Source: an uncultured Planctomycetia bacterium (lineage in GTDB: Bacteria > Omnitrophota > Gorgyraeia > CAYWPX01). From it: a stretch of DNA of 64,000 bases. The notes under the pieces are model-generated. The model was not told the origin of the DNA, made no database searches, and saw only the letters and a program-made list of their open reading frames with translations. The stretch spans positions 1,252-65,251 of the forward strand of contig CAYWPX010000010.1 of NCBI GenBank assembly GCA_964460615.1, read 5' to 3'. Below, one piece after another: positions 16,999 to 39,989 of the stretch (positions within the stretch are counted from its first letter, which is position 1; every line of letters begins with the position of its first letter). A program made the translations under genes and the position numbers.

Positions 16999-17010
16999 AG
17001 ATTTAAATTA

Positions 17011-17063
17011 GCTCATAGTTTCGCCTGCTAATGAGCAGGCAGAGCTCATGGCTCATAGTAAAT
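17011..17063. repeat. Copy of the leader motif (TTAGCTCATAG…GCTCATGGCTCATAGTAA) in the macB 5' leader, split by a GCCTGCTCATTAGCAGGC hairpin
   Basis: Direct comparison with 4331-4376. Confidence 0.5.
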
Positions 17064-17122
17064 ACGTCTAAGGCTAGGAGCTTAGATTTCAAGCCTGAAG
17101 CCTGCAGCCAGAGACATTCCCG

Positions 17123-21170: not shown

Positions 21171-21172
21171 AA

Positions 21173-22750: not shown

Positions 22751-24177
22751 ATCACATCCTTGTTAAAGAAAATAAATAAAACCCCAACAGCGCATAATTG
22801 TATAAAAAGAAATAAAAATGCTAATTTATGACTTATTGGTTCTCTTTGGCTTGTCATTCCTTTGGGAAGATTGCCAAAAAGTATTTTAGCAAAGTGATAG
22901 ATAAACGCTCCGAAAACTATCGATAGAAATATCAGTATAAATGCTGCCAGTACATACGATCCTTTCGTAAAGGCGGCTATTATTATAAGTATCTCGCTTA
23001 TAAATAGAGAAAACGGCGGAAAACCGGTAAGCGCAAATACCCCCAATAGGACCATTATGCCTGTGAATGGAAGCACCTTCATCACCCCGCGGATAGCATT
23101 CATATTATGTTTTTTGTAATAGCCTACGATATTACCTGCCCCGAAAAACATTAGTGATTTAGCCACGGCATGGTTATATATATGAAAAATCGCCCCGGCC
23201 AGAGCTAAAGGCGAACCTAATCCAAAGCCGATTGAAATCATCCCAACATGCTCAATACTGCTATATGCGAGCAGCCTCTTAAGGTCCTTCTGCACTAAGA
23301 TAAATACGCATGGTATCGCCATTGAGATTATCCCGAAAAGAATCAGTAAATTCCCAAAAAATGGAAAACCAACGTTTTCAATAACTATGATCCCGAACCT
23401 TAAAATCGCATATATCGCTATTTTTAACAATACTCCTGACAAAAGAGCGCTTATAGGAGCGACTGCCTGGCTATGCGCATCGGGCAGCCACGTATGCATG
23501 GGCGCAAGGCCTGCTTTGGTGCCATACCCGACGAGAATAAATATGAAGGCGATCTTGATCATATTCTTATTCATATTGGACGAAACTAAAACCATGTCGG
23601 ACCAATTGAGGCTTTTAACATTACCTATAAGAGAAAAAGCATAGGAAAAAAGGATCGTACCCAGAAGCGCAAATATGATCCCCACAGAACAGATGATAAT
23701 ATATTTCCAAGCGGCCTCTACGGACTCTTTGGAGTTATAAAAACCCACCAAAAACGCCGAGACAAGCGTAGTCATTTCTATGGTCACCCATAACATCCCT
23801 AAGTTATTGGCTGCCGGCGCAAATAACATAGCAAGGCACAATAGATTGAAAAGAACATAATATATCTTTACTTTCTTAGTACTTAATTTCCCCTCTTTCA
23901 GGTCTTTTTCAATGTACCCGATGGAGTAAAGTGCTGTAGCAAAAGCCACTATGGATATAACGAATATAAAGAATGCGGATAATGTGTCTATATATAAAAG
24001 ATCATTATGCACTAAAATATTTCCTGAAATTATGGAATCTTTTAATAATATAAAGCTCGCTACAAGCACCACCAGATACCCCAGGCTATTTATTACCCCA
24101 AAGATTCTATCTTTTTTGATAATTAAGGATAGGCCCGCAAGTATTAGCGGTATAGCTAAGACCAAAAATATTCCCAT
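22720..24177 (-). CDS. NuoM/NuoN / HyfF-like proton-pumping antiporter subunit
   Basis: ~14 TM helices with the conserved WLPDAHSQAVAPISALL…LLAYSSIEHVG motifs of complex I antiporter-like subunits. Confidence 0.75.
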   Translation of the reverse strand: MGIFLVLAIPLILAGLSLIIKKDRIFGVINSLGYLVVLVASFILLKDSIISGNILVHNDLLYIDTLSAFFIFVISIVAFATALYSIGYIEKDLKEGKLSTKKVKIYYVLFNLLCLAMLFAPAANNLGMLWVTIEMTTLVSAFLVGFYNSKESVEAAWKYIIICSVGIIFALLGTILFSYAFSLIGNVKSLNWSDMVLVSSNMNKNMIKIAFIFILVGYGTKAGLAPMHTWLPDAHSQAVAPISALLSGVLLKIAIYAILRFGIIVIENVGFPFFGNLLILFGIISMAIPCVFILVQKDLKRLLAYSSIEHVGMISIGFGLGSPLALAGAIFHIYNHAVAKSLMFFGAGNIVGYYKKHNMNAIRGVMKVLPFTGIMVLLGVFALTGFPPFSLFISEILIIIAAFTKGSYVLAAFILIFLSIVFGAFIYHFAKILFGNLPKGMTSQREPISHKLAFLFLFIQLCAVGVLFIFFNKDVIWVTQRLFKI

Positions 24178-24185
24178 AAACTTTT

Positions 24186-24821
24186 TTATCCTTTTAAACG
24201 CGAAAGTTTATTTACGTCAATATGCGTAAATAGCTTATTTATCCGGTAAACAAAAAATCCCATTATCATGACACTTAAAAATACGTCAAAAAATATCGCT
24301 ATCTCGATAAAAAACGGCATTCCTCCCGATATCGTCAAGGCCAATAAGAATAGCCCGTTCTCCATAACCAGTAACCCTATTATCTGAGAAAGGGCCGTCA
24401 TCCTCGAGACCATCAGGAATATGCCCGATAAGAGCACAAAAAAGGCTACCGCAAACATCCCGGTGATAGACTGATTTGCCGTTACTATCACTTGCGTTGT
24501 AAAAAACCATGATAAATATGTGAAACCCAGCGCCCATATTAAGGATAACTGCGGGTTGATAAATAATCCCAGGTCTTCGTTAACTTTTATCTTCCTGATT
24601 ATTCTGTATAATAAAAATGGAACTAAAATGACCTTTATGATAAATACTAAAGCAGCAATTATAAAAAGATCCCCTTCTCTCTCCTTTAAAGCGACAATAA
24701 ACGCCGCCAAAAATAGGCAAAATGACTGGCATCGAAAACCCCTTATCAGGGCCCCCATCCTTTTAGCGATAACCATCAGGTAAGTGGACATTAAAAGTAA
24801 AAATAATATAATTTCCTGCAT
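24186..24821 (-). CDS. HyfE/NuoK-like small membrane subunit
   Basis: 211-aa polytopic membrane protein at the HyfE position of hyf/ehr operons; assignment by context and size. Confidence 0.5.
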   Translation of the reverse strand: MQEIILFLLLMSTYLMVIAKRMGALIRGFRCQSFCLFLAAFIVALKEREGDLFIIAALVFIIKVILVPFLLYRIIRKIKVNEDLGLFINPQLSLIWALGFTYLSWFFTTQVIVTANQSITGMFAVAFFVLLSGIFLMVSRMTALSQIIGLLVMENGLFLLALTISGGMPFFIEIAIFFDVFLSVMIMGFFVYRINKLFTHIDVNKLSRLKG

Positions 24822-24822
24822 G

Positions 24823-25746
24823 TTAGGCTCCTAAAATGGCAAATATTACTGCAACAATCCCCAAAACAAAGGCAAACCCGAGAAAATCCGCTACTCTAAA
24901 TAATCTCATCTTCGCTAACGACACCTCAACCAATGCCACTATGATAGCGATAATGGCAAATCTGGCTACATACCATAAAATCCAGTATATAAAATCGGCG
25001 GAATTTAAAATTTCAGGGACGTTGATAGGAAAAATTATCTGGGCTATGATAAAGAATAGGATCAGCTGCTTTATGTATGAAGATATTTCCAGTAAAGCTA
25101 AACTCCTGCCGGAATATTCCAGGACCATCGCCTCGTGTACCATAGTAAGCTCCAGATGCGTCTCCTGATTGTCTACAGGAACTCTAGAAGTCTCAGCTAT
25201 AGTTATAAGAAATAAGGCGATTGCGCCGACTATGGATGCTACTGATATCCCGTGCATACCGCTAAAGGCAGCTAAATTCGTCGAACCAAACTGCAATGCC
25301 ACAGAAAATACCACTAAACACATCACCGGCTCAGCTAAGCTTGATATGAACATCTCCCTTGATGAGCCCATTCCCCCGAAAGAACTTCCCGTATCGAGGG
25401 CCGCAAGGCATAAGAAAAATCTTCCAAGAGAAAAAATAAATATAAGCGCAATAAAATCCCCCATATGGTTCAAGGGGTTGGTAAAAATAAAAATCGGGAT
25501 AAGAACTGCCGCAGTTAAAACGGAGGAAAAAACCATATAAGGCGCGATTCTAAACACCCAGGAAGCGTCTTTAGAAATAACCTCATCTTTAGAAAATAAT
25601 TTGACGAGGTTAAAATACGGCTGCAAAACACCCTGGCCTATGCGCATTCTGAGGGTATTTTTGACCTTTGTTATAAATCCGCTTAGTATAGGTGCTGCCA
25701 GAATAAAAAAAGCTATCTCGATTAAAACTAAAAATATATTTTTCAT
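24823..25746 (-). CDS. NuoH / HycD-like membrane subunit
   Basis: N-terminus …APILSGFITKVKNTLRMRIGQGVLQPYFNLVKLFSKDE… matches the NuoH/HycD signature. Confidence 0.8.
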   Translation of the reverse strand: MKNIFLVLIEIAFFILAAPILSGFITKVKNTLRMRIGQGVLQPYFNLVKLFSKDEVISKDASWVFRIAPYMVFSSVLTAAVLIPIFIFTNPLNHMGDFIALIFIFSLGRFFLCLAALDTGSSFGGMGSSREMFISSLAEPVMCLVVFSVALQFGSTNLAAFSGMHGISVASIVGAIALFLITIAETSRVPVDNQETHLELTMVHEAMVLEYSGRSLALLEISSYIKQLILFFIIAQIIFPINVPEILNSADFIYWILWYVARFAIIAIIVALVEVSLAKMRLFRVADFLGFAFVLGIVAVIFAILGA

Positions 25747-25794
25747 ATTGAATCTCTTTTTGGGTTTTAACCCGGAGCTTCTTTCATGTATGAT

Positions 25795-25917
25795 CCCGCA
25801 TCGTAAGATATCGCAAAAATTTCTTCCCCGATAATTCCGAAGAATTTTCGGGACTAAATCTTTGGAATTTTAGGATTTAAAATTCCTAGGGGCGATATTT
25901 TTGCGATACTCTGCGGG
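25795..25917. mobile_element. MITE-like element, copy B. TIRs CCCGCATCGTAAGATATCGCAAAAAT … ATTTTTGCGATACTCTGCGGG. Inserted in the intergenic gap inside the Ehr operon.
   Basis: Read directly; same family as 19929-20084. Confidence 0.6.
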
Positions 25918-25973
25918 ATAATCTATCTTGCATTAATTCCGGGCTTAAAAGCCAGGAATTAATGCAATATAGA

Positions 25974-27821
25974 TTAGAACCTGCCCATAAATACAATTAA
26001 TAATATCAGTGTCATAAAAATATAAGCGAGATACAGATGAATAGACCCCGGCTGAATACGCCTTGCGTACTTGGCCAATTTAAAAATCAAACTAAGCATC
26101 GGCTCATATATATACTCTTTAAAAACTTTGGTAGTATGCGTTTCATATCTAAAAGATTTGACATAATAGAAAGACTCTCTGATCTTTTGTGTTTTGCGGT
26201 AGGGCAAAAGAAAAAAACTGAAAGCGATCCTGAATGGCTTTGAAAAAGCCGTAGCAGTATATTCATTCCTCGGGTCAAGCTTATAGTAACCGCAATCCCA
26301 TGTTTTATATATAACGGCTTTTTTCCTTTTAAACATATACAGCATTACTCCTAATAGCCCCGTCGCTACCAGCACAATCGCAAGTATCGGTAAAGATAGA
26401 TAAATATCTGCCCCCGAAACCTGCGGATTAGCCTGCAGACTAATAATAAAATTATTCGGAGTAAAACTCATATTACTTATATCAACCCCGGCAGAAAAAC
26501 CCGCTATCTTACTAAGCATCTTTATAATGAATCCCGCCGCTAAACCAAGAAGAATTACAAGTACTGATAATATTGCCATAGATATCCTCATTGATATCGA
26601 TACCTCTTTGGCGTCTTTAGCGTTTCTACTTCTTGGCTGGGCAAGAAATATTATCCCGAATGCCTTGATAAAAGTGGCTATGGCTAAACCACCTGTGAGA
26701 CAAAGTAAAGATGCTACTATGCACAAAAATAGTTTCGTGCCGCCCAAAGTGTTAAGAGCCCCCAGGAAAAATGCCTGCAAAGTTAACCACTCGCTGACAA
26801 AGCCATTTAAAGGCGGTAAAGCTGATATCGCCATTACTCCTACCAGAAAATAAATAGCGGTCTGGGGCATCCGCTTTATAAGCCCGCCAAGTTTTTCCAT
26901 ATCGCGAGTTCCGGTAGCCTGGTAGATACTGCCGCTGCCTAAAAATAGAAGGCCTTTAAATATTGCATGATTCACGAGGTGATATAGCCCGGCTATTAAA
27001 GAAAAGATTGCAAGATATGGCATATTTATGCTCATAAAAAATATTGCCAGCCCCACTCCAAGCAGGATAATCCCGATATTTTCAACACTTGAATAAGCCA
27101 AAAGCCTTTTTATATCTTTTTCCATGAGGGCATATATGACACCCACTAAACATGTGAATGTAGCAAGTATGATTATAAGAATTCCCCACCACGAAGCGCC
27201 CACTCCGAGTATGAAGATAACAAATCTTATAAGCCCGTATATTGCGGTTTTGATCATTACGCCTGACATGATACTTGAGATATGGCTTGGAGCCTGCGGG
27301 TGGGCATATGGCAACCAGATATGTAAAGGCACAATGCCTGCCTTGGTGCCAAAACCTACTACAAGCAGAAGAAAAACTGCATTCCTGATATTCTGCGGCA
27401 TAAGCATACAACCACTTTTGATGCTTAATAGATCGAACGAACCGGTATATTTATAAAGAATCATAAAAGCAGCTATTAAAAATGCTGTTCCGATATGAGT
27501 CATTATTATGTATATTGTACCCGCCTGAATAGATTTTTCATGGGTGGAGTCAAACACGACGAGAAAGTATGAAACGAGTGACATGATCTCCCATATTACA
27601 AGAAAGAAGATAATATTTTTAGCCGTCACAACTAAACACATCGAGATAACAAAAATAATCATTAGAACCCATGCTAATAGGATCTTTGAACTAGGGTAAT
27701 CTTTTTTGAGGTAGCCGATAGAGTATATGGCGGATGGGATCGATACAATAGCAATCGCTATCAGGAAAAAAACTGACAGTGGATCAACTAAAAACAGTTT
27801 TGAAATACTTTGAAAATCCAT
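25974..27821 (-). CDS. NuoL / HyfB-like antiporter-type membrane subunit
   Basis: 615 aa, polytopic, WLPYAHPQAPSHISSIMSG…LLAYSSVENIG motifs. Confidence 0.8.
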   Translation of the reverse strand: MDFQSISKLFLVDPLSVFFLIAIAIVSIPSAIYSIGYLKKDYPSSKILLAWVLMIIFVISMCLVVTAKNIIFFLVIWEIMSLVSYFLVVFDSTHEKSIQAGTIYIIMTHIGTAFLIAAFMILYKYTGSFDLLSIKSGCMLMPQNIRNAVFLLLVVGFGTKAGIVPLHIWLPYAHPQAPSHISSIMSGVMIKTAIYGLIRFVIFILGVGASWWGILIIILATFTCLVGVIYALMEKDIKRLLAYSSVENIGIILLGVGLAIFFMSINMPYLAIFSLIAGLYHLVNHAIFKGLLFLGSGSIYQATGTRDMEKLGGLIKRMPQTAIYFLVGVMAISALPPLNGFVSEWLTLQAFFLGALNTLGGTKLFLCIVASLLCLTGGLAIATFIKAFGIIFLAQPRSRNAKDAKEVSISMRISMAILSVLVILLGLAAGFIIKMLSKIAGFSAGVDISNMSFTPNNFIISLQANPQVSGADIYLSLPILAIVLVATGLLGVMLYMFKRKKAVIYKTWDCGYYKLDPRNEYTATAFSKPFRIAFSFFLLPYRKTQKIRESFYYVKSFRYETHTTKVFKEYIYEPMLSLIFKLAKYARRIQPGSIHLYLAYIFMTLILLIVFMGRF

Positions 27822-27980: not shown

Positions 27981-28023
27981 GGAAGGCGGATATAAAAGTA
28001 AAAGACCTTGACGGTTTACTCAA
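27981..28023 (-). terminator. Candidate terminator downstream of the ACR3 gene
   Basis: 10-bp stem AAGACCTTGA…TCAAGGTCTT, then T-rich TTTTACTTTTAT on the minus strand. Confidence 0.4.
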
Positions 28024-28128
28024 TCAAGGTCTTGGGTTTCATTCCTGCGGCCTTTGCCGTATAGCCAGTATAACTAATAGTTTGTTCCGGTATTTACTTT
28101 ATCAGTATAATCCTTTAAGGTTACTATT

Positions 28129-29187
28129 TCAAGGATTTTTTTTAAATCTAAGTGCCAAGTTCACAAGTATTATCAAAACAGGGACTTCTACTAACGGCCC
28201 AATTACTGTAGCGAAAGCCTGGTTTGAGCTTATACCAAATATTGCTACAGCTACTGCAATCGCCAATTCAAAATCATTACTAGCAGCAGTAAATGAGGTT
28301 GCAACTCTTTGCCCATAATTTATCTTCATACGACCAGAAATAAAAAAAGTCGCAAACCACATTATAAAAAAATATATAACCAAAGGCACAGCAACCCTGA
28401 ACACGTCTAAAGGTTGTTTTACAATATATTGGCCTTTTAAAGAAAACATTACAATTATTGTAAATAGAAGCGCTACTAAGGTTATAGGGCTTATCTTAGG
28501 AATAAATTTATCTTCATACCACTTTTTGCCTTTTAACTTTATCAGACTGAAGCGCGTTATGGCTCCCAATAGAAATGGGATACCAAGATAAAATAAAACC
28601 GTTGATGCGGCATCCACCATGGATATATTTATATTTAAACCTTTGTCAAGGCCCAGCCACTTTAGCCCTAGAGTAATAAATAGATAGATATATGCTGCAT
28701 AAAATAAGATCTGGAATATTGCATTAAAAGCTACTAGACCTATTGCAAATTCCCTGTCGCCCTCGGCAAGTTCATTCCACACAATAACCATAGCAATGCA
28801 GCGCGCCAAACCAACAAGAATAACTCCAACCATGTACTCCGGATAATTATGGAGAAAAATAATTGCGAGAATAAACATTACAACAGGCCCGACAATCCAA
28901 TTCTGGATCAAAGAAAGCGCTAAAAGCTTTGGCTTATTAAATACCTTTCCCATCTCTTCATATTTTACTTTAGCAAGAGGAGGGTACATCATAAGTATCA
29001 AACCTATCGCTATTGGAATGGATGTAGCCCCTACCTGCATATCCGATATGCATTTAGTAGCGCTTGGAGCAAAATAACCTAAAGCAACCCCTATCCCCAT
29101 CGCCAAAAATATTAAAGGTGTTAGCAGCTTATCTAATAACGATAGTTCTTTTCTAGATTCATATAATTCATGTTTTGTATAAGGCAT
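28129..29187 (-). CDS. acr3: ACR3-family arsenite efflux transporter
   Basis: 10-TM BART-superfamily layout and typical ACR3 N-terminus. Confidence 0.8.
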
Positions 29188-29222
29188 GCTTACTCCTTCT
29201 CAGTAAATTATCATCCAATATT

Positions 29223-30011
29223 TTATGTAACCGGTTTTTTTGCCGAAATTTTGAGGCTTACTATAACATCCTCTAGGCTTTTAAAATTATCCAAAATATT
29301 GTCTACAGGGTAACTTGACTGGCTGATTACACCCACATCTTCGAATCCTGCCTTCTTAATAAGTTGTATATATGTGTCTTTACTTATAGCCCCTGCAATA
29401 CACCCCACATATGCCTCAACCGATTCTTTAACTGAATTTGGCAAATCCTTAAGAAGCGCCAAGTCTGAGATCATTAATCTGCCAGATGGTTTTAACACCC
29501 TAAATGCCTCTCGAAACACCTGTTCTTTGTCAGGCGAAAGATTAATTACACAATTTGAAATAACTACATCAATTGATTTATCTTCAACTGGAAGTTTCTC
29601 AATTTCGCCTAAGCGAAAATCGACATTGCTATATTTGCCTTTTTTAGCATTCAATTTTGCCTTATCAATCATTTCGGATGTCATATCAATACCAATAACA
29701 CGGCCATCCGGACCCACTTCTTTTGCTGCCAAAAACACATCAAAACCAGCCCCGCTTCCCAGATCAAGAACAACGTCACCCTTTTTTAATGAAGCAAGCG
29801 CTACCGGGTTACCGCATCCAAAACCTAAATTCGCTTCTTCGGGGGCAGAATTCATATCTGACTCGCTATAACCAATAGCTTTACTTATTTGTTTTGCCTT
29901 TGTAGTGCCGGAACAACAAGTTGGCCCTGAGCAACAAGAGGTATTTCTTGTAACTGCCTTGGCATAGCCATCCCTAACCATTTTTTTAATTTCTTCTGAT
30001 TTTCTTTTCAT
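29223..30011 (-). CDS. arsM: Arsenite S-adenosylmethionine methyltransferase (ArsM)
   Basis: SAM motif VLDLGSGAGFDV, N-terminal Cys cluster (CCSGPTCCSG), ArsM-like length. Confidence 0.8.
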   Translation of the reverse strand: MKRKSEEIKKMVRDGYAKAVTRNTSCCSGPTCCSGTTKAKQISKAIGYSESDMNSAPEEANLGFGCGNPVALASLKKGDVVLDLGSGAGFDVFLAAKEVGPDGRVIGIDMTSEMIDKAKLNAKKGKYSNVDFRLGEIEKLPVEDKSIDVVISNCVINLSPDKEQVFREAFRVLKPSGRLMISDLALLKDLPNSVKESVEAYVGCIAGAISKDTYIQLIKKAGFEDVGVISQSSYPVDNILDNFKSLEDVIVSLKISAKKPVT

Positions 30012-30053
30012 ATTTCAACCGATCCTCCATATCTAAATCTACTTAAAAAGCAT

Positions 30054-31013
30054 TTATACCAAAATTTGTTGAATTAAATTAAATAGATAACCCGTTATTA
30101 TGATAGCCAGGATCGTTATGCCAAAAAAAATTGCTATCAAGTTTAGCTTCATCGCGCGCCTTAGCATTATGGCCTCAGGCAGGCTGAGCGCTGACACCGC
30201 CATCATAAAAGCTAGAGCTGTCCCAAGCGGAAATCCTTTTTGGAATAAAACAACAGCTATAGGCACTATTGCCGCGCAGCTACCATACATCGGCACTCCT
30301 ATAAGAGTAGCTATGGGAACGGAAAATATGCCTGTCTTGCCGACAGTGGATTGAACCATACCCTCGGGTATATAATTATGGATTAAAGCCCCTACCCCAA
30401 CACCTACCAATACCCATATCCAAAGTTTTTTTATAATGCAATTTGCTTCACTAAGGCCGAATGAGACCCTGTTTTTAAAACCCTTGTATTTTATCTCGCA
30501 ACTTGATTCCAAATTACCGGCAACGATATCTTTCTCCAGGTATCTTGCTAAATTCATCCTGTCCAATATAATTCCCGATATGGTGCCTATCGACATCCCG
30601 CTTATTATATAAAGAAGTGTTATCTTCCATCCAAAAAAACCTATCATCAGCACTACAAGGTACTCATTAATTAAAGGCGATGTTATCAAAAAAGAAAAAG
30701 TTACTCCCAACGGGATGCCGGCTTTAAGAAAACTCAAAAATATCGGTATTGAGGAACACGAGCAAAAAGGCGTCACTGCTCCGAATGCTGAAGCTAATAT
30801 ATTACCTAAGCCTTTTTTGTGCGCCAGCCAGCCTTTTATCTTATGCTGAGGCAGAAATGTTCTAAAAAAACCAATAGCGCCTATCATAAAAAATAGAAGC
30901 AGCATTATCTTTATCAAATCGTAGATAAAAAAATCCAATACTGCCCCCAATTTTGACTCAGGGTCGAATCCAAATACTGAATATATAAGCCAATCAACTA
31001 CTACTTGCAACAT
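30054..31013 (-). CDS. arsP: ArsP-like permease (organoarsenical efflux permease family, DUF318)
   Basis: 8-TM permease with a [10 protein letters not shown] motif; located in the ars cluster. Confidence 0.65.
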
Positions 31014-31153
31014 GAGTCGCTTTTTGAATCACTTTTACAGCAGCATTTTTGGGATTTGGACTTCTCTTCAATCTTCTTATCAAGTTTTGCAAAAATCCCC
31101 TTAAAAAAACTTTTTATCTTCCCGCTAGGTCTACATTCTTTTTCATTTTCCAT
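31001..31153 (-). CDS. Unlisted small Cys-rich ORF (50 aa): [50 protein letters not shown]
   Basis: Below the ORF-track size cutoff. Strong SD AAAGGAGAAGAC-ATG; stop overlaps the arsP-like start by 13 nt (translational coupling). CCC…CC C-terminus suggests metal(loid) binding. Confidence 0.5.
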
Positions 31154-31362
31154 GTCTTCTCCTTTTTTTATTTAACACCCAATTTTTTTAAAAAACTCAT
31201 CATCGGACACCAGTTGGTAAAAGCGGATTGCAAAAGATTCGCCCCGACAAAAGCCGTAAACCATAGCCATAGAGGGCTAAAATAATACGCCAGCACCAGA
31301 CTTATTAAAATCAATGTACCTGCTATGCCTCTCAGGATCCTATCCATAAAATTAGCTCCTTC

Positions 31363-34300
31363 TTAGGTTTTTTGTTTCATCGCCATGTAATAAATAACCG
31401 GAACGGTTGTGCGCGATAGTATCGTAGAGGCTATTTCTCCTGCCATTAACGATACCGCAAGGCCCTGGAATATCGGATCAAACAATATTACCGATGCCCC
31501 CACTACAACTGACGCTGCTGTAAGTAACATCGGTCGGAATCTTTTTGCACCGGCGTCTATGACGGCCTCCTCAAGGCTCATGCCTTCGTTAACCCTTATC
31601 TTAATAAAATCGGCTAAGATAATAGAATTTCTTACTACAATGCCGGCCCCCGCGATCATACCTATCATCGAAGTAGCCGTAAAAAATACTCCGAATAACC
31701 AGTGCGCCGGAAGTATCCCCACCAAAGTAAGCGGTATCGGGAGCATGATTATCCACGGGGTCTTAAATGACTGGAACCACCCCACCACAAGGACATATAT
31801 AAGTATAAGCACCAAGCAGAATGCGATACCCAGATCCCTGAAGACCTCATAAGTGATCTGCCATTCTCCATCCCATTTCATAGACCATTTATCAGTTGTT
31901 TTTGGCTGATCGGTAAAAAGCTGTGTCAATGTTTTTTCCTTTGCCGGGGCTGGCGAAGGAAGGGCAATATCATTTATAGGGCCTTTTAAGTCGAGTATCG
32001 TATAGACCGGGCTTTCATATTCGCCCGCAACATCAGCTATGACGTATGCAACCTGCATAAGATTTTTATGATATATCGGCATATCTTTGGATCTTGTTTC
32101 CGTAATGACCAGCTCTCTTAATGGAATTTTTTGGCCCGCTCTCGACAATATCGATATATCCAAAAGCGCATCGAGGTTCTGGCGCTTCTCCTTTGGTAAT
32201 CTCAATATTATCTCAACCGGTTCATGTTCATCGGATAAATGCGCGAGATCAACCATGCTTCCTTTTATCGCCAGGGCGATCGTATTTGCTATGACAGGAA
32301 CAGAAATCCCATTTAAAGTAGCCTTCTCAGTATTGATCCTGAGCCTAAAAAGTTTTTCGGGCTTTGTAACATATGTGTCGATATCGGTAATACCCTTATT
32401 TTTGTTAAGGAGTTCTTCGATTTTATTGGCGAGTTCATTCTGGCCCTCGGTTGTCGGGCCATAGACCTCAAAAACCAGCGTTGAAAGCACCGGCGGGCCG
32501 GGCGGAACCTCGGCTATCTGGACATGCCCTCCGTGATTTTTAACTATTTCGTGGATCTTTGCCCTTACGGACTTTGCGATATCATGGCTCTGCCGTTTTC
32601 GTGATTTTTTGCCGACAAGATTCACCTGGAGGTCTCCTTGATGCGGCAACGACCTTAAATAATAATGCCTTACTAAGCCGTTGAAATTATAAGGAGCACT
32701 ACTACCGGCATATGCCTCTATATCCTTTACTTCCGGAACAGTCACAAGATAATCTGAGATCTCTTTAAGCGCGTTTTTGGTCTTTTCGAGTGGTGTTCCA
32801 TCCGGCATATTAAGCACAACCTGAAATTCATTCTTATTGTCAAATGGGAGCATCTTTACTTTTACCAATCTAAGAGGAATAAGCATTATGACCGCCACTA
32901 AAAGCGCGGCCATAGAGATAAGGAATATTTTTCTGACCTTAGCATTATAAATAAGAGGGTTCATGTAGGATCTATATATGCGCGTAAGAAGGTCTTCTTT
33001 CTCCCCTTCGGAGTGGCTTTTTAATTTGCCTTCTTTATGGGCCTTTCCCAGGATCTTGTATGCCGCCCAGGGAGTGGCAATAAAAGCAACCATCATGGAG
33101 ATGGACATAGCTATACTGGCGCCTATCGGTATGGGGCGCATATAGGGGCCCATAAGCCCTCTCACGAATGCCATCGGCAGAATGGCCGCAATGACTGTAA
33201 GCGTAGCGAGTATCAACGGACTGCCGACCTCTTTTACGGCTTCAATGGTAACATCAAGCAAGGATCTCCCGCGGTTTTTGGGAAGCCTTAGATGCCTTAC
33301 AATATTTTCTACATCGACAATAGGGTCATCGACTAATATCCCTATTGAAAAGATCAGCGCAAATAGCGTTATCCTGTTAAGCGTAAATCCCAGAAAATAA
33401 AAAGCCGCCAAAGTCAGAGAAAGCGTCATCGGTATCGCTATGGCTACTACTCCTGATTCCCTGAACCCGAGCGTAAACGCTATCAAAACGCTTACGCCGA
33501 ATATAGCAAGCGCCATATGGAACAAAAGCTCATTAGACTTTTCATTAGCAGTCTCTCCGTAATCCCTCGTCACGGTAAAACTGATATCATTGTGCCATTC
33601 GGCAATTCGTATCTCTTCAACTTTTGAAATAATGTTTTCACAAAGTTTTACCGCATTTGCACCCTTTCTTTTTGAGACCGCAAGCGTAACTGCTTTGAAA
33701 GGCCCTTTTTCCGTTTCAATCGAGCCTTTGCCGAATCTTATATTCACATCATTATCAAGTTCGTCCGGACCGTCTACTACCTCGGCAATATCCTTGAGAT
33801 AAACCACTCCGCCGCCGCTTACCCCAACCACCAAATTCTCCAAGTCTTCTTTTGACCTGAAAAACGCGTCGGCTTCAACGTGGGTCAAATTATCGGCATC
33901 ATCCAAATGCCCCGACTCAATCTTGATATTCGCTTTTTGGATCAGCGAGGTTATCTCGTCGGTATTAAGCAGTCTCTCGCTTAATTTTGCCTCATCAAAA
34001 AAAACCTGAAACTGCCTTTTTCTGCCTCCGGTAATAACAGTCTCGGAAACATCCGGTGTGGCATTAATTTTATTTTGGATGTCGGCTACGATCTTACGGA
34101 GAGTGACTTCATCTTTTGTTTTACTGTGGAATGTCAAACTTAAAATCGGGACATCATCGATAGACCTGAGCTTTATAAGAGGCTCGGAAGCGCCTTTTGG
34201 AAGCAGATCCAGGTTTGAATACACCTTTGTATAAAGCTTGATGAGGCTTTTTTCTACGTCCTCACCGACCTTGAACCTGACGGTTATAAGAGCGCCGTCA

Positions 34301-34593
34301 CTTTCGGCTTTTGAATATATATATTCTACCCCTTTTATCTCCCAGAGCTTTCTTTCGCCGAGATTAAGGATCCTTCTTTCGACTTCCTCACTCGTCATCC
34401 CCGGGTAAGAGACAAATATATCGAACATCGGCACCGAGATCTGAGGCTCCTCTTCTCTGGGAAGATTTATAACAGAGATCATACCAATTATTATAGAAGT
34501 AACTATTATTAAAGGCGTAACTTTTGAATTAACGAATGTTTTTATTACATTTCCCAAAAAACCTTGTTTGTCGAAGGAATTGATATTATTCAT
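31363..34593 (-). CDS. RND efflux transporter permease subunit (AcrB/CzcA superfamily)
   Basis: 1076 aa, 12 TM with two large periplasmic loops, typical N-terminal TM1 and conserved TM4 region. Confidence 0.9.
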   Translation of the reverse strand: MNNINSFDKQGFLGNVIKTFVNSKVTPLIIVTSIIIGMISVINLPREEEPQISVPMFDIFVSYPGMTSEEVERRILNLGERKLWEIKGVEYIYSKAESDGALITVRFKVGEDVEKSLIKLYTKVYSNLDLLPKGASEPLIKLRSIDDVPILSLTFHSKTKDEVTLRKIVADIQNKINATPDVSETVITGGRKRQFQVFFDEAKLSERLLNTDEITSLIQKANIKIESGHLDDADNLTHVEADAFFRSKEDLENLVVGVSGGGVVYLKDIAEVVDGPDELDNDVNIRFGKGSIETEKGPFKAVTLAVSKRKGANAVKLCENIISKVEEIRIAEWHNDISFTVTRDYGETANEKSNELLFHMALAIFGVSVLIAFTLGFRESGVVAIAIPMTLSLTLAAFYFLGFTLNRITLFALIFSIGILVDDPIVDVENIVRHLRLPKNRGRSLLDVTIEAVKEVGSPLILATLTVIAAILPMAFVRGLMGPYMRPIPIGASIAMSISMMVAFIATPWAAYKILGKAHKEGKLKSHSEGEKEDLLTRIYRSYMNPLIYNAKVRKIFLISMAALLVAVIMLIPLRLVKVKMLPFDNKNEFQVVLNMPDGTPLEKTKNALKEISDYLVTVPEVKDIEAYAGSSAPYNFNGLVRHYYLRSLPHQGDLQVNLVGKKSRKRQSHDIAKSVRAKIHEIVKNHGGHVQIAEVPPGPPVLSTLVFEVYGPTTEGQNELANKIEELLNKNKGITDIDTYVTKPEKLFRLRINTEKATLNGISVPVIANTIALAIKGSMVDLAHLSDEHEPVEIILRLPKEKRQNLDALLDISILSRAGQKIPLRELVITETRSKDMPIYHKNLMQVAYVIADVAGEYESPVYTILDLKGPINDIALPSPAPAKEKTLTQLFTDQPKTTDKWSMKWDGEWQITYEVFRDLGIAFCLVLILIYVLVVGWFQSFKTPWIIMLPIPLTLVGILPAHWLFGVFFTATSMIGMIAGAGIVVRNSIILADFIKIRVNEGMSLEEAVIDAGAKRFRPMLLTAASVVVGASVILFDPIFQGLAVSLMAGEIASTILSRTTVPVIYYMAMKQKT

Positions 34594-35995
34594 TTGTTAT
34601 CCTTTTAGCAAGATCTTCCATTTCAAACTCACCGAGTTGCCCCGAAAGGAAGAAAAGCCTTGTGCGGGAAGCTTCAACATCTGTGATGAGCGAATAATAA
34701 GCTTTTGCCACACTAAGGTATGAATAACGCACCTCAAGAAGGTCAGCTATGGACTTCCTGCCTTCCCTATATAAAGGAAGCATCAGGTCCATACCTTCTT
34801 TAGCGTCATTAAGCATCTCTTTAATGACCGGGATATTGGATTCGGTTGTCTTAAAATGCCCGAATTCCCCTGCTATATCACCGGCAATGCTGTCTTTCAG
34901 GATCTTTTCATCAAATTCTAATTTTTTAAGTTCTTCTTTTGATATCTTGATCCGGGATAGATATGCCGGATCGAATATGTCTATCTGGGCCTTGACCCCT
35001 GCCAGATAATTCTGTCCGCCATTTGCAGAGAGCCTGTGGGTGTCTTCATGGACCTCTGCGAAAGCGTTTATTCTGGGCAAGATAGTCGATTTTTCTCTCG
35101 AAAGGTCTATCCGCTGAGCTTTAATTATTTTTTCTATCGCCGCCAGGTCAGGCCTGGATTTATACGCTATATCAAATAAATTATCAAGCGATTCTCCCAT
35201 TTTAACGGGCCTGATATTGCCCTCGATTTCAAAAGTATTAAAAGGTTCTTCTCCCATGATTATATTTAAAAGCACATGAGTTATCATCTTATCCTGCTCA
35301 AGTTTGTTCTTCAATTGATTGATATTGCCAAACGCTACCTTTGCGACATAAAAATCAGCTCCGAGTATAAGCCCCTTATCCTTAAGGTCCTTTGCCGCCT
35401 TTACATCTTCTAGGGATGCAAGGCTGATCTCATTACATGTTACTAGCAATTTCTCGACAGCAATGGCCTTTAAATATGCATCGGATGCTACTAAATAGGC
35501 CTCCATCTTAGTGAATAAACTTTCAAATCTGGCAGATTCGACATGTAATTTAGCGGCCTTTACCCTGTAAATCGTCTGCAAGGCATCAAAGACCGGGAGC
35601 TTTCCGCCGATGGAAAAATCAAATGTCGGGTGGGAATCTGGCTTGTTGAGATTTGATAGAGAAAAATTTTCCTGGTTAAAGGCATTCTCCCTTAATAGGC
35701 TTCCGAAAACATAAACAGGGTCATTGCCGATCTCAAAAGAGGCGCCGGCGGTGAACTGAGGCATAAACCCTGACGCAGCCTTGTATTTGCGGGCAATAGC
35801 AAGATTGACGCTTGAATCCTGTTTTTTTAGTTTCGGATAATAGGCAAGGACCTTCCCGTAGAATTCCCTGAAAGTAAGGATCTTGGCGTTTGGAATATCT
35901 TTTGCGTAAGATATGTTTGCAAAATTAAATAAAAAAACCAGAAGAAATGAACATAATATCCTTAAGGAGCTTAGAAAAAAAGCATGGTTAGACAA
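34586..35995 (-). CDS. Outer-membrane efflux protein (TolC/OMF family)
   Basis: Signal peptide, two OEP repeats; 8-nt overlap with the RND gene. No membrane-fusion adaptor gene between them. Confidence 0.75.
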   Translation of the reverse strand: MSNHAFFLSSLRILCSFLLVFLFNFANISYAKDIPNAKILTFREFYGKVLAYYPKLKKQDSSVNLAIARKYKAASGFMPQFTAGASFEIGNDPVYVFGSLLRENAFNQENFSLSNLNKPDSHPTFDFSIGGKLPVFDALQTIYRVKAAKLHVESARFESLFTKMEAYLVASDAYLKAIAVEKLLVTCNEISLASLEDVKAAKDLKDKGLILGADFYVAKVAFGNINQLKNKLEQDKMITHVLLNIIMGEEPFNTFEIEGNIRPVKMGESLDNLFDIAYKSRPDLAAIEKIIKAQRIDLSREKSTILPRINAFAEVHEDTHRLSANGGQNYLAGVKAQIDIFDPAYLSRIKISKEELKKLEFDEKILKDSIAGDIAGEFGHFKTTESNIPVIKEMLNDAKEGMDLMLPLYREGRKSIADLLEVRYSYLSVAKAYYSLITDVEASRTRLFFLSGQLGEFEMEDLAKRITNE

Positions 35996-36072
35996 TTTAG
36001 CCCTCCTTTATATAATTAATATAATTAAAATTCACTGAAAACACAACATAATTAATAGATATAAACACTCCA

Positions 36073-36426
36073 CTAATCTTCTAAGCATTTACCTATTTCT
36101 CCAACGCACCCAAGACAGGTAAGCCTGCCTAATGAACGTATCTCTTTGCATTTTAAAGAGCCGGCCTTGCTTAAGAGAGCGTTTTGACAAATTTTAACTT
36201 TTTCCAAAGAGATATCCTGAAAGAGGTACTTTGCCGCATAAAAGGCACCGCAAACTCCTTCAGGCGCCCTCCCTCCCCCATAATCTGCGAATAATTTAAC
36301 CACATCTTCGCTTAGAGAAAATTTATCTTTAAAAGCGCTGATGATCGACTGAGCGCAATTCAATCTGATAGACCCATCTTTGCCCAAAAAATATGCCTTA
36401 GCCTTCTCAGAACTCATATACTTCAC
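36073..36426 (-). CDS. C_GCAxxG_C_C family redox-active protein
   Basis: C…GVCGAFYAA…CLGC motifs. Confidence 0.7.
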   Translation of the reverse strand: MKYMSSEKAKAYFLGKDGSIRLNCAQSIISAFKDKFSLSEDVVKLFADYGGGRAPEGVCGAFYAAKYLFQDISLEKVKICQNALLSKAGSLKCKEIRSLGRLTCLGCVGEIGKCLED

Positions 36427-36473
36427 TCCTTATATTGTATTATTGTAATAATGCGATATTAATTACAAAAGAA

Positions 36474-36740
36474 TTATTTCTTTAATACCCTTAGAAGTTT
36501 CTCTACTCTATCATCAACCACCTTATAGCAGCACTTGACCCCATCTTTTTTGGTAGCAACGATGCCTCTATTTTTTAATAATGCGAGGTGCTGGGAAATA
36601 GTGGATTGAGGCAACTTTAAACCTCTTACTATCTTATTCACGTTACATTCGTGGTTTAAAAGCCCCTCGACAATTTTGAGCCTGACCGGATGGCCAAGGG
36701 CCTTAAAAAATTCGCTCTCTTTATTATATTCTAAACTCAT
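36474..36740 (-). CDS. arsR: ArsR/SmtB family transcriptional regulator
   Basis: wHTH ALGHPVRLKIVEGLL…STISQHLALLKNRGIV, C-terminal CC pair. Confidence 0.85.
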   Translation of the reverse strand: MSLEYNKESEFFKALGHPVRLKIVEGLLNHECNVNKIVRGLKLPQSTISQHLALLKNRGIVATKKDGVKCCYKVVDDRVEKLLRVLKK

Positions 36741-36813
36741 TTAGATCACCTCTATCGTATTATTACGATAATACAATATAAAATAATTTTTGTCAATACT
36801 TATTTAAAAGTAT

Positions 36814-37377
36814 TTATTTCTTTAGATAGGCTTTGATGATCCTTAGGTCGACCTTAGGTTTGTCATTTCTATCGGTGTCCATATTCTCTATTCTCTCCAC
36901 TACTTCATAGCCGGATACGACCTTGCCGAATATGGTGTGGCGCATATCGAGCCAGGGAGTCTTGGCAGTTGTGATAAAGAACTGGCTTCCGTTCGTATTA
37001 GGGCCGGAGTTCGCCATAGCAAGCATACCCGGAGAATCAAATTTCACGCTCTTTGATACTTCATCCCGGAACGGTTCACCCCAAATAGACTCCCCTCCGC
37101 AACCTGTCCCGGTCGGGTCCCCGCCCTGGATCATAAAACCTTTTATGACTCTATGAAATATTATGCCATTATAAAATCCCGTATCGGCCAGCTTTGAAAA
37201 ATTTTCACACGCCTTTGGGGCTACACCATCCAAAAGCTTCACTTCTATATTACCCAGATTTGTCTCCAACACCACCACCTTATCGTCCATAGCAGATACT
37301 CCTCTTATATTAGTGAAGCTTATCAATATTAAAATCAACACTGTTACTAAAAAATCCCGCTTTGTTACGGCAAACAT
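36814..37377 (-). CDS. Cyclophilin-type peptidyl-prolyl cis-trans isomerase (secreted)
   Basis: FHRVIKGFMIQGGD, GMLAMANSGPNTNGSQFFIT. Confidence 0.9.
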   Translation of the reverse strand: MFAVTKRDFLVTVLILILISFTNIRGVSAMDDKVVVLETNLGNIEVKLLDGVAPKACENFSKLADTGFYNGIIFHRVIKGFMIQGGDPTGTGCGGESIWGEPFRDEVSKSVKFDSPGMLAMANSGPNTNGSQFFITTAKTPWLDMRHTIFGKVVSGYEVVERIENMDTDRNDKPKVDLRIIKAYLKK

Positions 37378-37427: not shown

Positions 37428-39989
37428 TTAAATAACTTTTTTAAATAATTTCTTATTTATGAACTTCAAGCCTTCAAACCAGGCAAGGCTTGCCGCACCG
37501 CTCACTAATGCAATCATAACATCATCTACATGCAAAATTTCAAAATGGAACAGGTTCCTCAACTCTGGGACATATATAACCATTGATAAAGCTATCAATG
37601 CCGCGCCTACAACCCACATCAGCGCAGAATTTTTCTCTTTAACTATGCCGTTAAGGTTCTTTTCCCATGAAAGATTTGTCATTATCAGTATAAGGTTCGC
37701 AAATATCAGCGCTGCAAACGATAATGTGCGAGCCTCGAGATCGTTTTTACCTATATACAATGAGATGGTGAATATTGTAAAGACTACGACTAATATGCTT
37801 ACACCCTGAAGTAAACTATAGATAAAAGCTTTTTTATTAAATAACGACTCCATGAGGTTTCTTGGCGGATGCTTCATTATATCCTTTTCCTCAGGGCAGG
37901 CCTCAAACACCGTCGAGCATGCCGGATCAATGATAAGCTCCAGGAACGCTATATGAGCCGGAAGAAGCACTATGGGCATATTAAATAGGATAGGCAGAAA
38001 TGACATCCCTGCTATCGGAATATGGATTGCAAAGATATAAGCGATCGCTTTTTTTATATTATCATAAATCCTTCTGCCAAGTTTTACTGCGTGGACTATA
38101 GACGAAAAATCGTCGTTCAATAAAACCAAGGCCGAAGCTTCACGGGCGACATCAGTGCCTCTCTCGCCCATTGCAATACCGATATTTGCTGACTTAAGGG
38201 CCGGAGCGTCATTTACCCCGTCGCCTGTCATAGCTACGATTTCTCCGTTCGCTTTCAAGGCATTTACAATAGCGAGCTTCTGCTCAGGAACGACTCTGGC
38301 AAAAATATTTATTTTTTTTATTTTTTCTCTTAGCTCAGGATGATCCATCTTTTCCAGCTCCTGCCCTACGATGCACTCCTCCGGATTTTTTAAGCCTATC
38401 TCTTTGGCTATATGAATGGCTGTACCCGGATAATCGCCGGTTATCATAATAACCCTGATCCCGGCTTCATGCGCCTCCTTGATCGAGGCCGGCACAGTTG
38501 CCCTTACTGGATCCATAAAACCCAACAATCCTACAAATTCAAAATGAAAATCATGCTGAATGTCCGGGAGATCGGTTTTCTTGAATGACGCCTTTGCAAC
38601 ACCCAGAATCCTCAGTCCCCTCTTTGCCATATCTTCAATATTTTTTAATAGCTCATCCATCCTTAATTTATTAAAATGGCAGAGATCTGCTATGGCCTCA
38701 GGGGAACCCTTGGCGGCAATAATATAATTCTTCTTATCGGGAGATTCCCATACATGCGAAAGAGCCAAAAGCTCTTTTGAGAGCGGGTATTCTTTCACTA
38801 AACCCCAGTTATTATGTATATGCTCGGAACCCGAAAGATAAAACTCGCCTATCCTTTTAACCTCTTTTTCTATGGGGTCAAAAGGATCCTTCTGGCTGGC
38901 TAAAATGCCATACTCCATGATATTGTGAACTTCTTCAGGAAGAGCTTTAATATTTTTTGTATCGACATCGTAAAATTTGTTTTTTACGCAAAGGGTCACT
39001 AAATGCATCGCGTTTAAAGTAAGTGTTCCGGTCTTATCGGTGCAAAGGACAGTCGCAGCGCCAAGAGTCTCTATAGCAGGAGCTCGCCTTGTAAGAACCC
39101 GGCTTTTAGAGATCCTCCAGGCGCCTAAAGTAAGAAATATAACCAAAACTACCGGAAATTCCTCCGGCAGCATGGCCATGCTTAATGTTATACCTGCCAA
39201 TATGCCGTTTAACCAATTCCCCCTGGTTAAGCTGTAAATGATAACTACTAATATGCAAAGAATTATCCCCGCTATTGAAAAATTACGGACAATCTTTCCG
39301 GTTTCTTTTTTCAACAAAGTTTCTTCTTCTTTAATAGAGCTAAGGGCCTTGCCGATCTTCCCCATCTCAGTATGAGCACCGATACTAGTTACTTTGGCTA
39401 TACCCCTGCCTGATACGACAAGGGTCCCGGAATATACAAAAGGAAGGTCATCCCCTCCGGGCCGTTTGGCAGTTTCGCTTCCAATTGATTCTGATTTGCG
39501 TACGGGCATTGACTCGCCAGTAAGAAGGGATTCATCAATCGAAAGATTGGAGCAGGATAAAATTATGGCATCAGCCGGTACCCTGTCACCCTCACGAAGG
39601 ATCAGGATATCATCCATCACAACCTCGCGGCCCGCTATTCTCATCTGAAGGCCGTCGCGGATTACAAGAGCCCTTGGGCTGGATAAATCTCTCAGAGCCT
39701 CAAGAGTTCTTTCAGTCTTTCTCTCCTGGTAGAATGTGATGCCCACTACCACAAAAACGAATGACAAAAGCATCAAGGCGTCCTTCGGCTCACCCAAAAA
39801 AAAGTATATAAGACCGCTGCCGATAAGAAGAAGAAGCATAGGCTCTTTGACTACATTAAAAAATATAATGAAAGCGCTTCGCTTCTTCTGAGAAGGAATC
39901 TCGTTAAAACCGTGAATTTTCAGCCTCTCATTAACCTCCAGGCTTGAAAGACCCGTCGTATCTTTTAGGGAATTTTTGATTTTAGCCAT
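37428..39989 (-). CDS. Cation-transporting P-type ATPase (P2-type, Ca2+/Mg2+-like)
   Basis: CTDKTGTLT, MITGD, VAMTGDGVNDAPALK, 10 TM. Confidence 0.9.
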   Translation of the reverse strand: MAKIKNSLKDTTGLSSLEVNERLKIHGFNEIPSQKKRSAFIIFFNVVKEPMLLLLIGSGLIYFFLGEPKDALMLLSFVFVVVGITFYQERKTERTLEALRDLSSPRALVIRDGLQMRIAGREVVMDDILILREGDRVPADAIILSCSNLSIDESLLTGESMPVRKSESIGSETAKRPGGDDLPFVYSGTLVVSGRGIAKVTSIGAHTEMGKIGKALSSIKEEETLLKKETGKIVRNFSIAGIILCILVVIIYSLTRGNWLNGILAGITLSMAMLPEEFPVVLVIFLTLGAWRISKSRVLTRRAPAIETLGAATVLCTDKTGTLTLNAMHLVTLCVKNKFYDVDTKNIKALPEEVHNIMEYGILASQKDPFDPIEKEVKRIGEFYLSGSEHIHNNWGLVKEYPLSKELLALSHVWESPDKKNYIIAAKGSPEAIADLCHFNKLRMDELLKNIEDMAKRGLRILGVAKASFKKTDLPDIQHDFHFEFVGLLGFMDPVRATVPASIKEAHEAGIRVIMITGDYPGTAIHIAKEIGLKNPEECIVGQELEKMDHPELREKIKKINIFARVVPEQKLAIVNALKANGEIVAMTGDGVNDAPALKSANIGIAMGERGTDVAREASALVLLNDDFSSIVHAVKLGRRIYDNIKKAIAYIFAIHIPIAGMSFLPILFNMPIVLLPAHIAFLELIIDPACSTVFEACPEEKDIMKHPPRNLMESLFNKKAFIYSLLQGVSILVVVFTIFTISLYIGKNDLEARTLSFAALIFANLILIMTNLSWEKNLNGIVKEKNSALMWVVGAALIALSMVIYVPELRNLFHFEILHVDDVMIALVSGAASLAWFEGLKFINKKLFKKVI

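Follow-up and report, generated by a model that had tools for sequence, protein, structure and literature searches.

In the accepted model of tripartite efflux, a periplasmic adaptor or membrane-fusion protein (MFP) is indispensable: it bridges the resistance-nodulation-division (RND) permease and the TolC channel, and it opens the channel. To our knowledge, every RND pump characterised so far that depends on an outer-membrane factor (OMF) requires an MFP. RND transporters that need no MFP do exist (HpnN, MmpL proteins such as MmpL3, and SecDF), but these have no TolC-type channel as a partner, and they belong to other RND families (HAE2, HAE3 and SecDF). The current view of arsenic detoxification, in turn, has the pathway stop at the inner membrane. 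Here we analyse a locus where these two subjects meet. It occupies positions 28129-36740, minus strand, of a 64 kb stretch of contig CAYWPX010000010.1 from an uncultured bacterium of the Omnitrophota; this whole stretch is called the window below. An RND permease gene and a TolC-like OMF gene, with no MFP gene, share an operon there with genes for the As(III) methyltransferase ArsM and the arsenite permease ACR3.

Several described systems resemble the locus in part. With AcrAB-TolC and MexJK it shares a full-length ACR_tran permease, an intact proton relay (with a Lys-to-Arg change at R988) and an adjacent gene for a TolC-family channel. AcrAB-TolC also has a small membrane partner, AcrZ, to which a DUF2892 protein would correspond in the window. 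The locus differs from both in that no MFP gene is present in the operon or in the clade of its permease, which also scores below all NCBIfam RND subfamily cutoffs. CusCFBA with CopA is similar in that an inner-membrane exporter and an RND/OMF pump stand in one metal(loid)-resistance locus with a metalloregulator upstream. However, the RND permease of the window is not of the HME type (TIGR00914, 231 bits, cutoff 701), no conserved Met or Cys triad was identified in it, there is no equivalent of CusB or CusF, and its substrate is presumed to be a metalloid. Canonical ars operons (arsP-arsR-arsC-acr3 of C. jejuni, arsR-arsM of Rhodopseudomonas, arsF-arsG-trx-permease-arsC-acr3 of Prevotella) have ACR3, ArsM, a PF03773 permease with a CxC motif and an ArsR/SmtB regulator in common with it. 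They differ in that the window has RND, OMF, DUF2892 and C_GCAxxG genes, no ArsC, and an ArsR without the known As(III) sites. None of the four additional genes is part of any ars operon described in the literature we searched. Nor is the arrangement itself described in the searchable literature on RND genes in ars operons, DUF2892 with RND, adaptor-less RND/OMF pairs or arsenic genes of Omnitrophota.

We propose that the locus is a single ArsR-repressed operon of nine genes in two units, which would provide arsenicals with a two-stage route across first the inner and then the outer membrane. We give this reading, taken as a whole, about an even chance of being right. The first unit, arsR-C_GCAxxG-OMF-RND-DUF2892, is an efflux module that recurs in other genomes, often without ars genes, and whose permease belongs to a divergent RND family. 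The second, consisting of a small CCC peptide, a PF03773 permease, ArsM and ACR3, is an arsenic cassette. The branch of RND permeases represented here has lost its linked adaptor gene and kept OMF and RND translationally coupled; its sister lineages have ordinary tripartite pumps of the order OMF-MFP-RND(-DUF2892).

Organization of the locus

The features of the operon, in the direction of transcription, are as follows.

36768..36796, minus strand: sigma-70-like promoter TTGACA-17-TATTAT upstream of arsR, matching at 11/12 positions, the top match of the region
36753..36770, no strand assigned: operator O1, perfect palindrome TATCGTA-N4-TACGATA, predicted; overlaps the -10 box and the stretch just after it
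36474..36740, minus strand: ArsR/SmtB-family repressor, 88 aa (NF033788, 83.5 bits, cutoff 55)
36441..36458, no strand assigned: candidate operator O2, located between arsR and C_GCAxxG; differs from O1 by 2 mismatches
36073..36417 (alternative start 36426), minus strand: C_GCAxxG_C_C family protein (PF09719, 34.7 bits, cutoff 27)
34586..35995, minus strand: TolC-family OMF, 469 aa (PF02321, 115 bits, two repeats)
31363..34593, minus strand: RND permease, 1076 aa (PF00873, 481 bits, full length)
31168..31347, minus strand: DUF2892/YgaP-like_TM protein, 59 aa, two transmembrane (TM) segments (PF11127, 55.6 bits, cutoff 25.3)
31001..31153, minus strand: CCC micro-protein, 50 aa; its gene has AGGAG as Shine-Dalgarno sequence and overlaps the start of the permease gene by 13 nt
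30054..31013, minus strand: PF03773 ('ArsP_1') permease, 319 aa (PF03773, 216 bits, cutoff 32)
29223..30011, minus strand: ArsM, As(III) S-adenosylmethionine methyltransferase, 262 aa (NF008823, 358 bits, cutoff 263)
28129..29187, minus strand: ACR3 arsenite efflux permease, 352 aa (TIGR00832 equivalog, 442 bits, cutoff 282.8)
27990..28033 (stem 28002-28033), minus strand: intrinsic terminator with a 10-bp stem, a 12-nt loop and a T-rich tail

All nine genes are co-directional, with intergenic gaps of -13 to +77 nt. Eight of them had been named in a first-pass annotation of the sequence; each lies where it was placed and matches its family strongly, and the ninth, DUF2892, had been overlooked. 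The description of the cluster as ars-linked also holds, with both ArsM and ACR3 genuine by scores above their family cutoffs. The terminator proposed there is a real hairpin with a T-rich tract. It lies about 96 nt past the ACR3 stop and has a dG of -19.9 kcal/mol (z = -5.05), and 0/200 shuffled sequences fold equally well. The window has one promoter/operator for the operon, and no internal terminator was found between DUF2892 and the ars genes. Rfam and tRNA scans of the window found no RNA genes.

Absence of the adaptor gene in a whole lineage

The comparison covered 80 loci with genes for relatives of the RND permease, plus several more obtained by exact-protein look-up. Flanks of up to 10 kb were examined per locus, less on short contigs. 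The adaptor was sought with a profile made from 49 cognate MFPs of sister loci, which was run against all six-frame open reading frames (ORFs) of the window and 85 loci. In the window the sole match is a MacA-type MFP at 17126-18118. No match lies in the operon, where the OMF stop and the RND start overlap by 8 nt and the gaps between genes are too small for an adaptor gene. The earlier description of an RND and OMF pair atypically lacking an MFP gene is confirmed by this search, and the accompanying worry that an adaptor had been missed as a small ORF can be dismissed for this region. The MacA-type gene is the only adaptor gene of the window and forms part of a complete OMF-MFP-MacB (ABC-type) tripartite operon 10 kb away (15031-19349, minus strand). 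Just before that operon, at 14001-15000, GC content drops sharply to 0.27 from about 0.40 elsewhere.

What has to be revised is the idea that lack of the adaptor is an oddity of this ars operon. It is a trait of the clade. The cognate-MFP profile finds no adaptor in the examined flanks of loci L001-L018, L022, L023, L027 and L049, whose RND permeases are 53-77% identical to that of the window, and the Pfam tables of L086-L088 contain no MFP. Across 22 related loci from Omnitrophota, Kiritimatiellia, Elusimicrobia and Methylacidiphilaceae, no MFP stands between OMF and RND wherever both are visible. For the counts given below, 22 loci and the window form the adaptor-less set (23 in all), and 61 other loci form the comparison set.

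Relatives at about 50% RND identity have a gene of 340-620 aa directly upstream of RND, between OMF and RND where an OMF gene is present. These adaptor-bearing relatives come from Acidobacteriota, Verrucomicrobiota, Armatimonadota, Ignavibacteria, Nitrospirota, Desulfobacterota and NC10; in the Armatimonadota loci the upstream gene is present and an OMF gene was not seen. The profile recovers the adaptor just upstream of RND in essentially all loci at this level of identity. In L046 the ORF between OMF and RND is a true HlyD-type MFP by Pfam (HlyD_D23/HlyD_3). The OMF-MFP-RND order is retained in about 55 loci of the sister clade, which represent at least 8 phyla.

A neighbour-joining tree with an unrelated RND as its root groups the adaptor-less permeases into a single clade, sister to the adaptor-bearing ones. 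This clade comprises Omnitrophota, three Elusimicrobia, one Methylacidiphilaceae metagenome-assembled genome (MAG) and one unclassified MAG. The Kiritimatiellia locus L086, which is not in the tree, has the adaptor-less layout too.

Chlorobi relatives show an independent intermediate state. They encode a lipoprotein of 130-180 aa between OMF and RND (L079 9600-9998; L081 3436-3933; L083 9451-10002), whose match to the 380-position adaptor profile is confined to positions 7-50 and 308-378. We interpret it as a putative mini-adaptor that has kept the membrane-proximal domain and lacks the hairpin, lipoyl and barrel domains. Loss of the adaptor gene is, on these genomic grounds, a trait of the lineage rather than an assembly artefact or a quirk of a single operon.

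The RND permease, the OMF and a proposed small partner

The RND permease covers positions 2-1019 of the 1021 in PF00873. It reaches none of the curated subfamily cutoffs (406/1250 bits for NF033617 and 345/1250 for NF000282, besides the TIGR00914 score given above). The named proteins most similar to it (65-77% identity) come from MAGs of Candidatus Omnitrophota, which makes this phylum the most likely source of the window. The permease is about 22% identical to AcrB, and the closest solved structure is that of MexK (223 bits). The proton relay residues of AcrB (D407, D408, K940, R971 and T978) correspond to D422, D423, R988, R1018 and T1025, and these are invariant in 74/74 sequences of the family. 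Full docking subdomains that can be aligned with AcrB are retained. Positional entropy of the docking and porter subdomains gives a Mann-Whitney p of 7e-5 on differences, with ratios of 0.70-0.71 against 0.74 overall, in a docking domain that is the most variable one anyway.

The OMF has a signal peptide and no lipobox. A profile of its clade matches the solved TolC and CusC structures with E values of about 1e-14 to 1e-12. At RND identities of 65-80%, OMF identity is 0.37 in the adaptor-less and 0.50 in the adaptor-bearing clade, a weak signal, from one identity bin, that the OMF diverges somewhat faster relative to its RND in the adaptor-less clade. The gap between OMF and RND is -29 to +83 nt in most adaptor-less loci where the two are adjacent.

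Next to RND, before the CCC ORF, lies the DUF2892 gene, with AAGGAG as its Shine-Dalgarno sequence. Together with OMF and RND it makes up the near-constant core of the module: DUF2892 adjoins RND or OMF in the window and in 18/22 of the adaptor-less loci, versus 35/61 of the others. The motif NLxQSAFTxWC(P/L) is near-invariant among its homologues, several of which have Cys-rich C-terminal tails that end in CC or CCC. There is also a natural RND::DUF2892 fusion, P0075, of 1149 aa, with DUF2892 at the C-terminus (L004 10001-13450; L005 1863-5312). We propose that DUF2892 is a small membrane subunit of the RND permease, a role suggested by this fusion and by gene order. It is unrelated to AcrZ, from which it differs in having two TM helices and a conserved Cys. 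By the established topology of AcrB, the RND permease ends in the cytoplasm; with its two TM helices, DUF2892 should then have its tail in the cytoplasm as well.

In Acidobacteriota, a methyltransferase of about 195 aa follows adaptor-bearing RND-DUF2892 (L054 13448-14038; equivalent position in L056, L063, L071 and L082). Its best NCBIfam matches are ArsM models, all of them sub-threshold.

The C_GCAxxG protein has six conserved Cys in a pattern that is kept in four orthologues. It scores above the cutoff of PF09719 and below that of TIGR01909 (25.9 bits, cutoff 47.4). Since it has no signal peptide, it is expected to be cytoplasmic. ATG 36417, preceded by an AAGGAG Shine-Dalgarno sequence, is a likelier start than GTG 36426. 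The gene stands between regulator and OMF in L011 and L087, and directly before OMF in the truncated L027.

Linkage to arsenic genes

In ACR3 the motifs RCIAMV and GPLVEVPVL are present, and these contain the residues that the family needs for transport, the Cys of R-C-I-A-M-V and the Glu of G-P-L-V-E-V-P. ArsM has Cys at positions 26/27/32/33, 66 (GFGCGNP), 154 (SNCVINL) and 204 (GCIAGA), as read straight from the window. This set is presumably equivalent to C44, C72, C174 and C224 of CmArsM; the C154-C204 spacing of 50 equals that of C174-C224.

An ACR3 gene lies within 10 kb of RND in 6/23 adaptor-less loci (the window, L004, L008, L009, L011 and L049) and in 0/61 others (Fisher p = 2.5e-4). 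The linkage occurs in at least three distinct gene orders. L009 has ACR3-OMF-RND-DUF2892. L049 has DUF134-ArsP_1-ArsM-thioredoxin-ArsF-like-DsbD_2-ArsC(LMWP)-ACR3-OMF-RND-DUF2892. In both, the ACR3 stop and the OMF start overlap by 4 nt. Because the linkage recurs in differing arrangements, it argues for a functional tie of the module to arsenic.

DUF134 and Nitro_FeMo-Co-like genes also recur beside the RND module or ars genes in Omnitrophota loci (L004 7198-7883; L087 12420-13831; L092 11232-12490). In L087 and L092 the pair is joined by a methyltransferase of about 200 aa.

The PF03773 permease and the CCC micro-protein

The permease has the motif TPFCSCSS (Cys84/Cys86), which resembles the vicinal CxC pair of CjArsP (Cys65/Cys67). 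The CSC core is present in every PF03773 homologue that we aligned, the SO_0444 Cu/Zn type included. Because it is found family-wide, the CxC motif is not diagnostic of ArsP. Scores against the SaoE and SO_0444 NCBIfam models are far below cutoff. Among the closest plasmid-borne homologues (41-45% identity), one belongs to an ars operon of Prevotella with the order ArsF-ArsG-thioredoxin-permease-ArsC-ACR3, a second is a neighbour of the ars genes of NT-26, and a third, from Citrobacter, is without ars neighbours. Both arsenic (L092/93, L097/98) and copper (L094, L095) contexts are represented among the orthologues that are 68-73% identical:

L092: DUF134-CCC-permease-ArsF-DsbD_2-ACR3 (arsenic)
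L097: ArsR-CCC-permease-ArsC (arsenic)
L094: CopA-permease (copper)
L095: CsoR/RicR-OMF-MFP-CusA-CCC-permease (copper)

The pairing of ArsM with ArsP had been read on first pass as production and export of methylarsenite, MAs(III). The inference of export is not secured, given the family-wide CxC and the mixed contexts of the orthologues, and ArsP is an unproven name for the permease of the window.

The small ORF before the permease encodes a Lys-rich N-terminal part, predicted to be helical, and then a CCC...CC tail. Searched exhaustively with phmmer, 1.84 billion representatives yielded a family of 20 proteins, 41-69 aa long, with the consensus GK.K.FF..L..KLDKKMEEKAK...CCC...SCCS; a word-indexed homology search, unlike phmmer, returned no homologue. 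The core of this consensus, KLDKKMEEKAK..CCC..SCCS, is common to 23 sequences, among them those of the window, L092 and L095. A 13-nt overlap with the permease start is seen in all four contexts examined: the window, L092 (7858-8013), L095 (7861-8013) and L097/98 (L097 2714-2869). The protein matches no Pfam family and has no signal peptide or TM segment. Judging by this conservation, the ORF is a genuine gene of a real micro-protein family.

Its product may be a cytoplasmic thiolate chaperone that hands a thiophilic ligand to the permease. ArsD, the As(III) metallochaperone of ArsAB, offers an analogy as a small cytoplasmic Cys-rich protein encoded right before an arsenic transporter. The CCC peptide differs in that it has no sequence or fold relationship to ArsD, is 50 aa long and would serve a secondary permease, not an ATPase.

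The regulator and its predicted operator

A single-sequence AlphaFold 2 (AF2) model of the regulator (pLDDT 73.6) has helices alpha1-alpha5 and a beta wing, in keeping with the ArsR fold indicated by its NF033788 score. Orthologues of this 88-aa protein head the OMF-RND module in L001, L011, L013, L086 and L087. In all five loci a TTGACA-N17-TAT(T/A)AT promoter lies upstream of them, and ATCGTA-N4-TACGAT or a close variant stands at the equivalent position in L001, L011, L013 and L087; the site of L086 is divergent. Four of these loci (L001, L013, L086 and L087) have OMF-RND-DUF2892 and no ars genes. Since the regulator gene recurs with this promoter and operator ahead of OMF-RND-DUF2892 where ars genes are absent, we consider the regulator to be dedicated to the RND module. 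It is of the ArsR/SmtB family and not the classical regulator of arsenic resistance that the label arsR suggests.

An operator had been expected upstream of 36740, and the palindrome O1, overlapping the promoter and conserved in orthologous loci, is a good candidate for it. O1 is the sole perfect copy in the 64 kb window. Matches to O1 at three mismatches or fewer occur at chance level overall, and the position of O2 alone is suggestive; O2 may be a second repressor site or may have arisen by chance.

Cys32 and Cys71 of the regulator are invariant across the aligned orthologues, and Cys70 is found in the window copy only. In the model, Cys32 is located just ahead of helix alpha3, and Cys70/71 are within strand beta2 of the wing. 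The nearest solved relatives, PagR and BigR, have neither of the two invariant Cys.

A possible mechanism

If our reading is correct, the operon might work as follows. Through Cys32 and Cys70/71 the repressor would bind a thiophilic ligand, with As(III) or MAs(III) the likeliest, and would then leave the palindrome that overlaps the -10 box. ArsM would methylate As(III). Arsenicals would cross the inner membrane through ACR3 and the PF03773 permease, the latter fed by the cytoplasmic CCC peptide. Finally, the proton-driven RND permease, with DUF2892 as its small subunit and the TolC-like protein as its channel, would expel them across the outer membrane.

Alternative explanations

Several observations weigh against this reading, and they concern two of its elements, the lack of an adaptor and the link to arsenic. 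With regard to the first, the RND permease has no clade-specific indels or extra domain, and one residue alone separates adaptor-less from adaptor-bearing sequences. The OMF is of normal length, with standard TolC tip motifs, and has no indel or extra domain that would explain docking. Because neither protein shows an adaptation for adaptor-free docking, the pump may not be adaptor-less in function: RND and OMF could assemble with an MFP encoded elsewhere, so that linkage alone was lost. The requirement for an MFP in all characterised OMF-dependent pumps speaks for this. The organism also encodes MFPs such as MacA, and further MFP genes are found in the Omnitrophota-type contig L094. Such an explanation sits less easily with the comparative data. 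In the sister clade the MFP gene has stayed in its place between OMF and RND. In most adaptor-less loci the OMF and RND genes overlap or abut, the profile found no cognate MFP in the examined flanks of 19 related loci, and the single MFP of the window is already part of a complete MacB operon. The Chlorobi relatives, which independently lost the hairpin, lipoyl and barrel domains, suggest that the family tolerates losing the part of the adaptor that contacts the OMF. We regard an adaptor supplied in trans as quite possible, with a chance a little short of even.

With regard to the link to arsenic, 17/23 adaptor-less modules have no ars gene in the examined flanks. Their neighbours are genes for glutaredoxin, thioredoxin, DsbA-like protein, peroxiredoxin, TauE, YeiH-type protein and metallo-beta-lactamase (MBL)-fold protein. 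Since most modules have no ars neighbours, the native substrate of the module may not be arsenic. The RND permease has no conserved Cys, several conserved Met and His in it do not make an interpretable metal site, and its TM4 motif VDDPIVDVEN resembles that of HAE1 pumps for organic substrates. The regulator has none of the thiolate sites known to us for As(III) or MAs(III), which are C32/C34/C37 in R773, C95/96/102 in AfArsR, C15/16/55 in CgArsR and C101/102 in SpArsR; it keeps only the equivalent of R773 C32 and ends at residue 88. The orthologues of the PF03773 permease in copper operons point the same way.

The module might accordingly be a general exporter for thiol, redox or soft-metal stress with its own ArsR/SmtB sensor (for persulfide or Cu/Cd, for example), which in a compact genome merely lies beside an ars cassette or became transcriptionally fused to it. 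Besides the neighbours just named, this would fit with PagR, BigR and HlyU, the closest solved relatives of the regulator, none of which is an As sensor. It would also fit with the adaptor-bearing relative L035, where a SO_0444-type Cu/Zn permease is next downstream, and with L095, where the CCC-permease pair directly follows a CsoR-regulated CusCBA-type operon. A standalone DUF2892 gene was sulfide-induced in Azospira (PMC5358917). Mere proximity is harder to reconcile with the enrichment of ACR3 in several gene orders, with the 4-nt ACR3/OMF overlaps, and with the single promoter/operator of the window and the lack of an internal terminator there between DUF2892 and the ars genes. The window regulator has, moreover, gained a third Cys, Cys70, beside the invariant Cys71. 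We see a module without any relation to arsenic as a real possibility, though a somewhat doubtful one. For the family in general, thiophilic or redox-active toxicants are probably the better description of the substrate class, and arsenicals are the best guess for the operon in the window.

A bolder version of our reading can also be formulated. The whole RND lineage would dock directly on its TolC-type channel, as a two-component RND-OMF pump with DUF2892. In Omnitrophota it would have been recruited to export arsenicals across the outer membrane, the first RND-type pump with this task, and would receive them from ACR3 and from the CCC-served PF03773 permease. We consider this unlikely at present. 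Far less probable still is that the RND permease works without a channel and releases a lipid or envelope-type substrate into the periplasm as HpnN and MmpL do, leaving the OMF to other pumps: these and SecDF are precedents for doing without an MFP, but OMF and RND co-occur in nearly every locus of both clades and are translationally coupled here and closely spaced in most related loci, the sister clade has the classical OMF-MFP-RND order, and the docking subdomains are complete.

Surroundings of the operon

Directly upstream of arsR, on the same strand, lie genes for a secreted cyclophilin (36814-37377) and a P-type cation ATPase of the Cation_ATPase_N/C type (37428-39989). A similar ATPase gene comes after the CusA-type RND gene in L094. 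Directly downstream of the operon, at 20661-27821, there is a cluster of subunits of a complex-I-like or Hyf/Mbh-type membrane hydrogenase (NuoB-, NuoCD-, NuoH- and NuoL-like).

Implications

A monophyletic and conserved adaptor-less lineage, known from many MAGs with RND permeases of 65-77% identity, would surprise efflux specialists, even as a genomic inference that an adaptor encoded in trans could explain. Together with the Chlorobi lineage and its adaptor stub, it makes up a natural reduction series in which the need for the adaptor can be probed. The locus also provides testable partners for two uncharacterised families, RND pumps for DUF2892 and PF03773 permeases for the CCC micro-protein. 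It further advises caution in naming: PF03773 genes should not be called ArsP on context alone. If the pump does handle arsenicals, an outer-membrane step would be added to arsenic detoxification.

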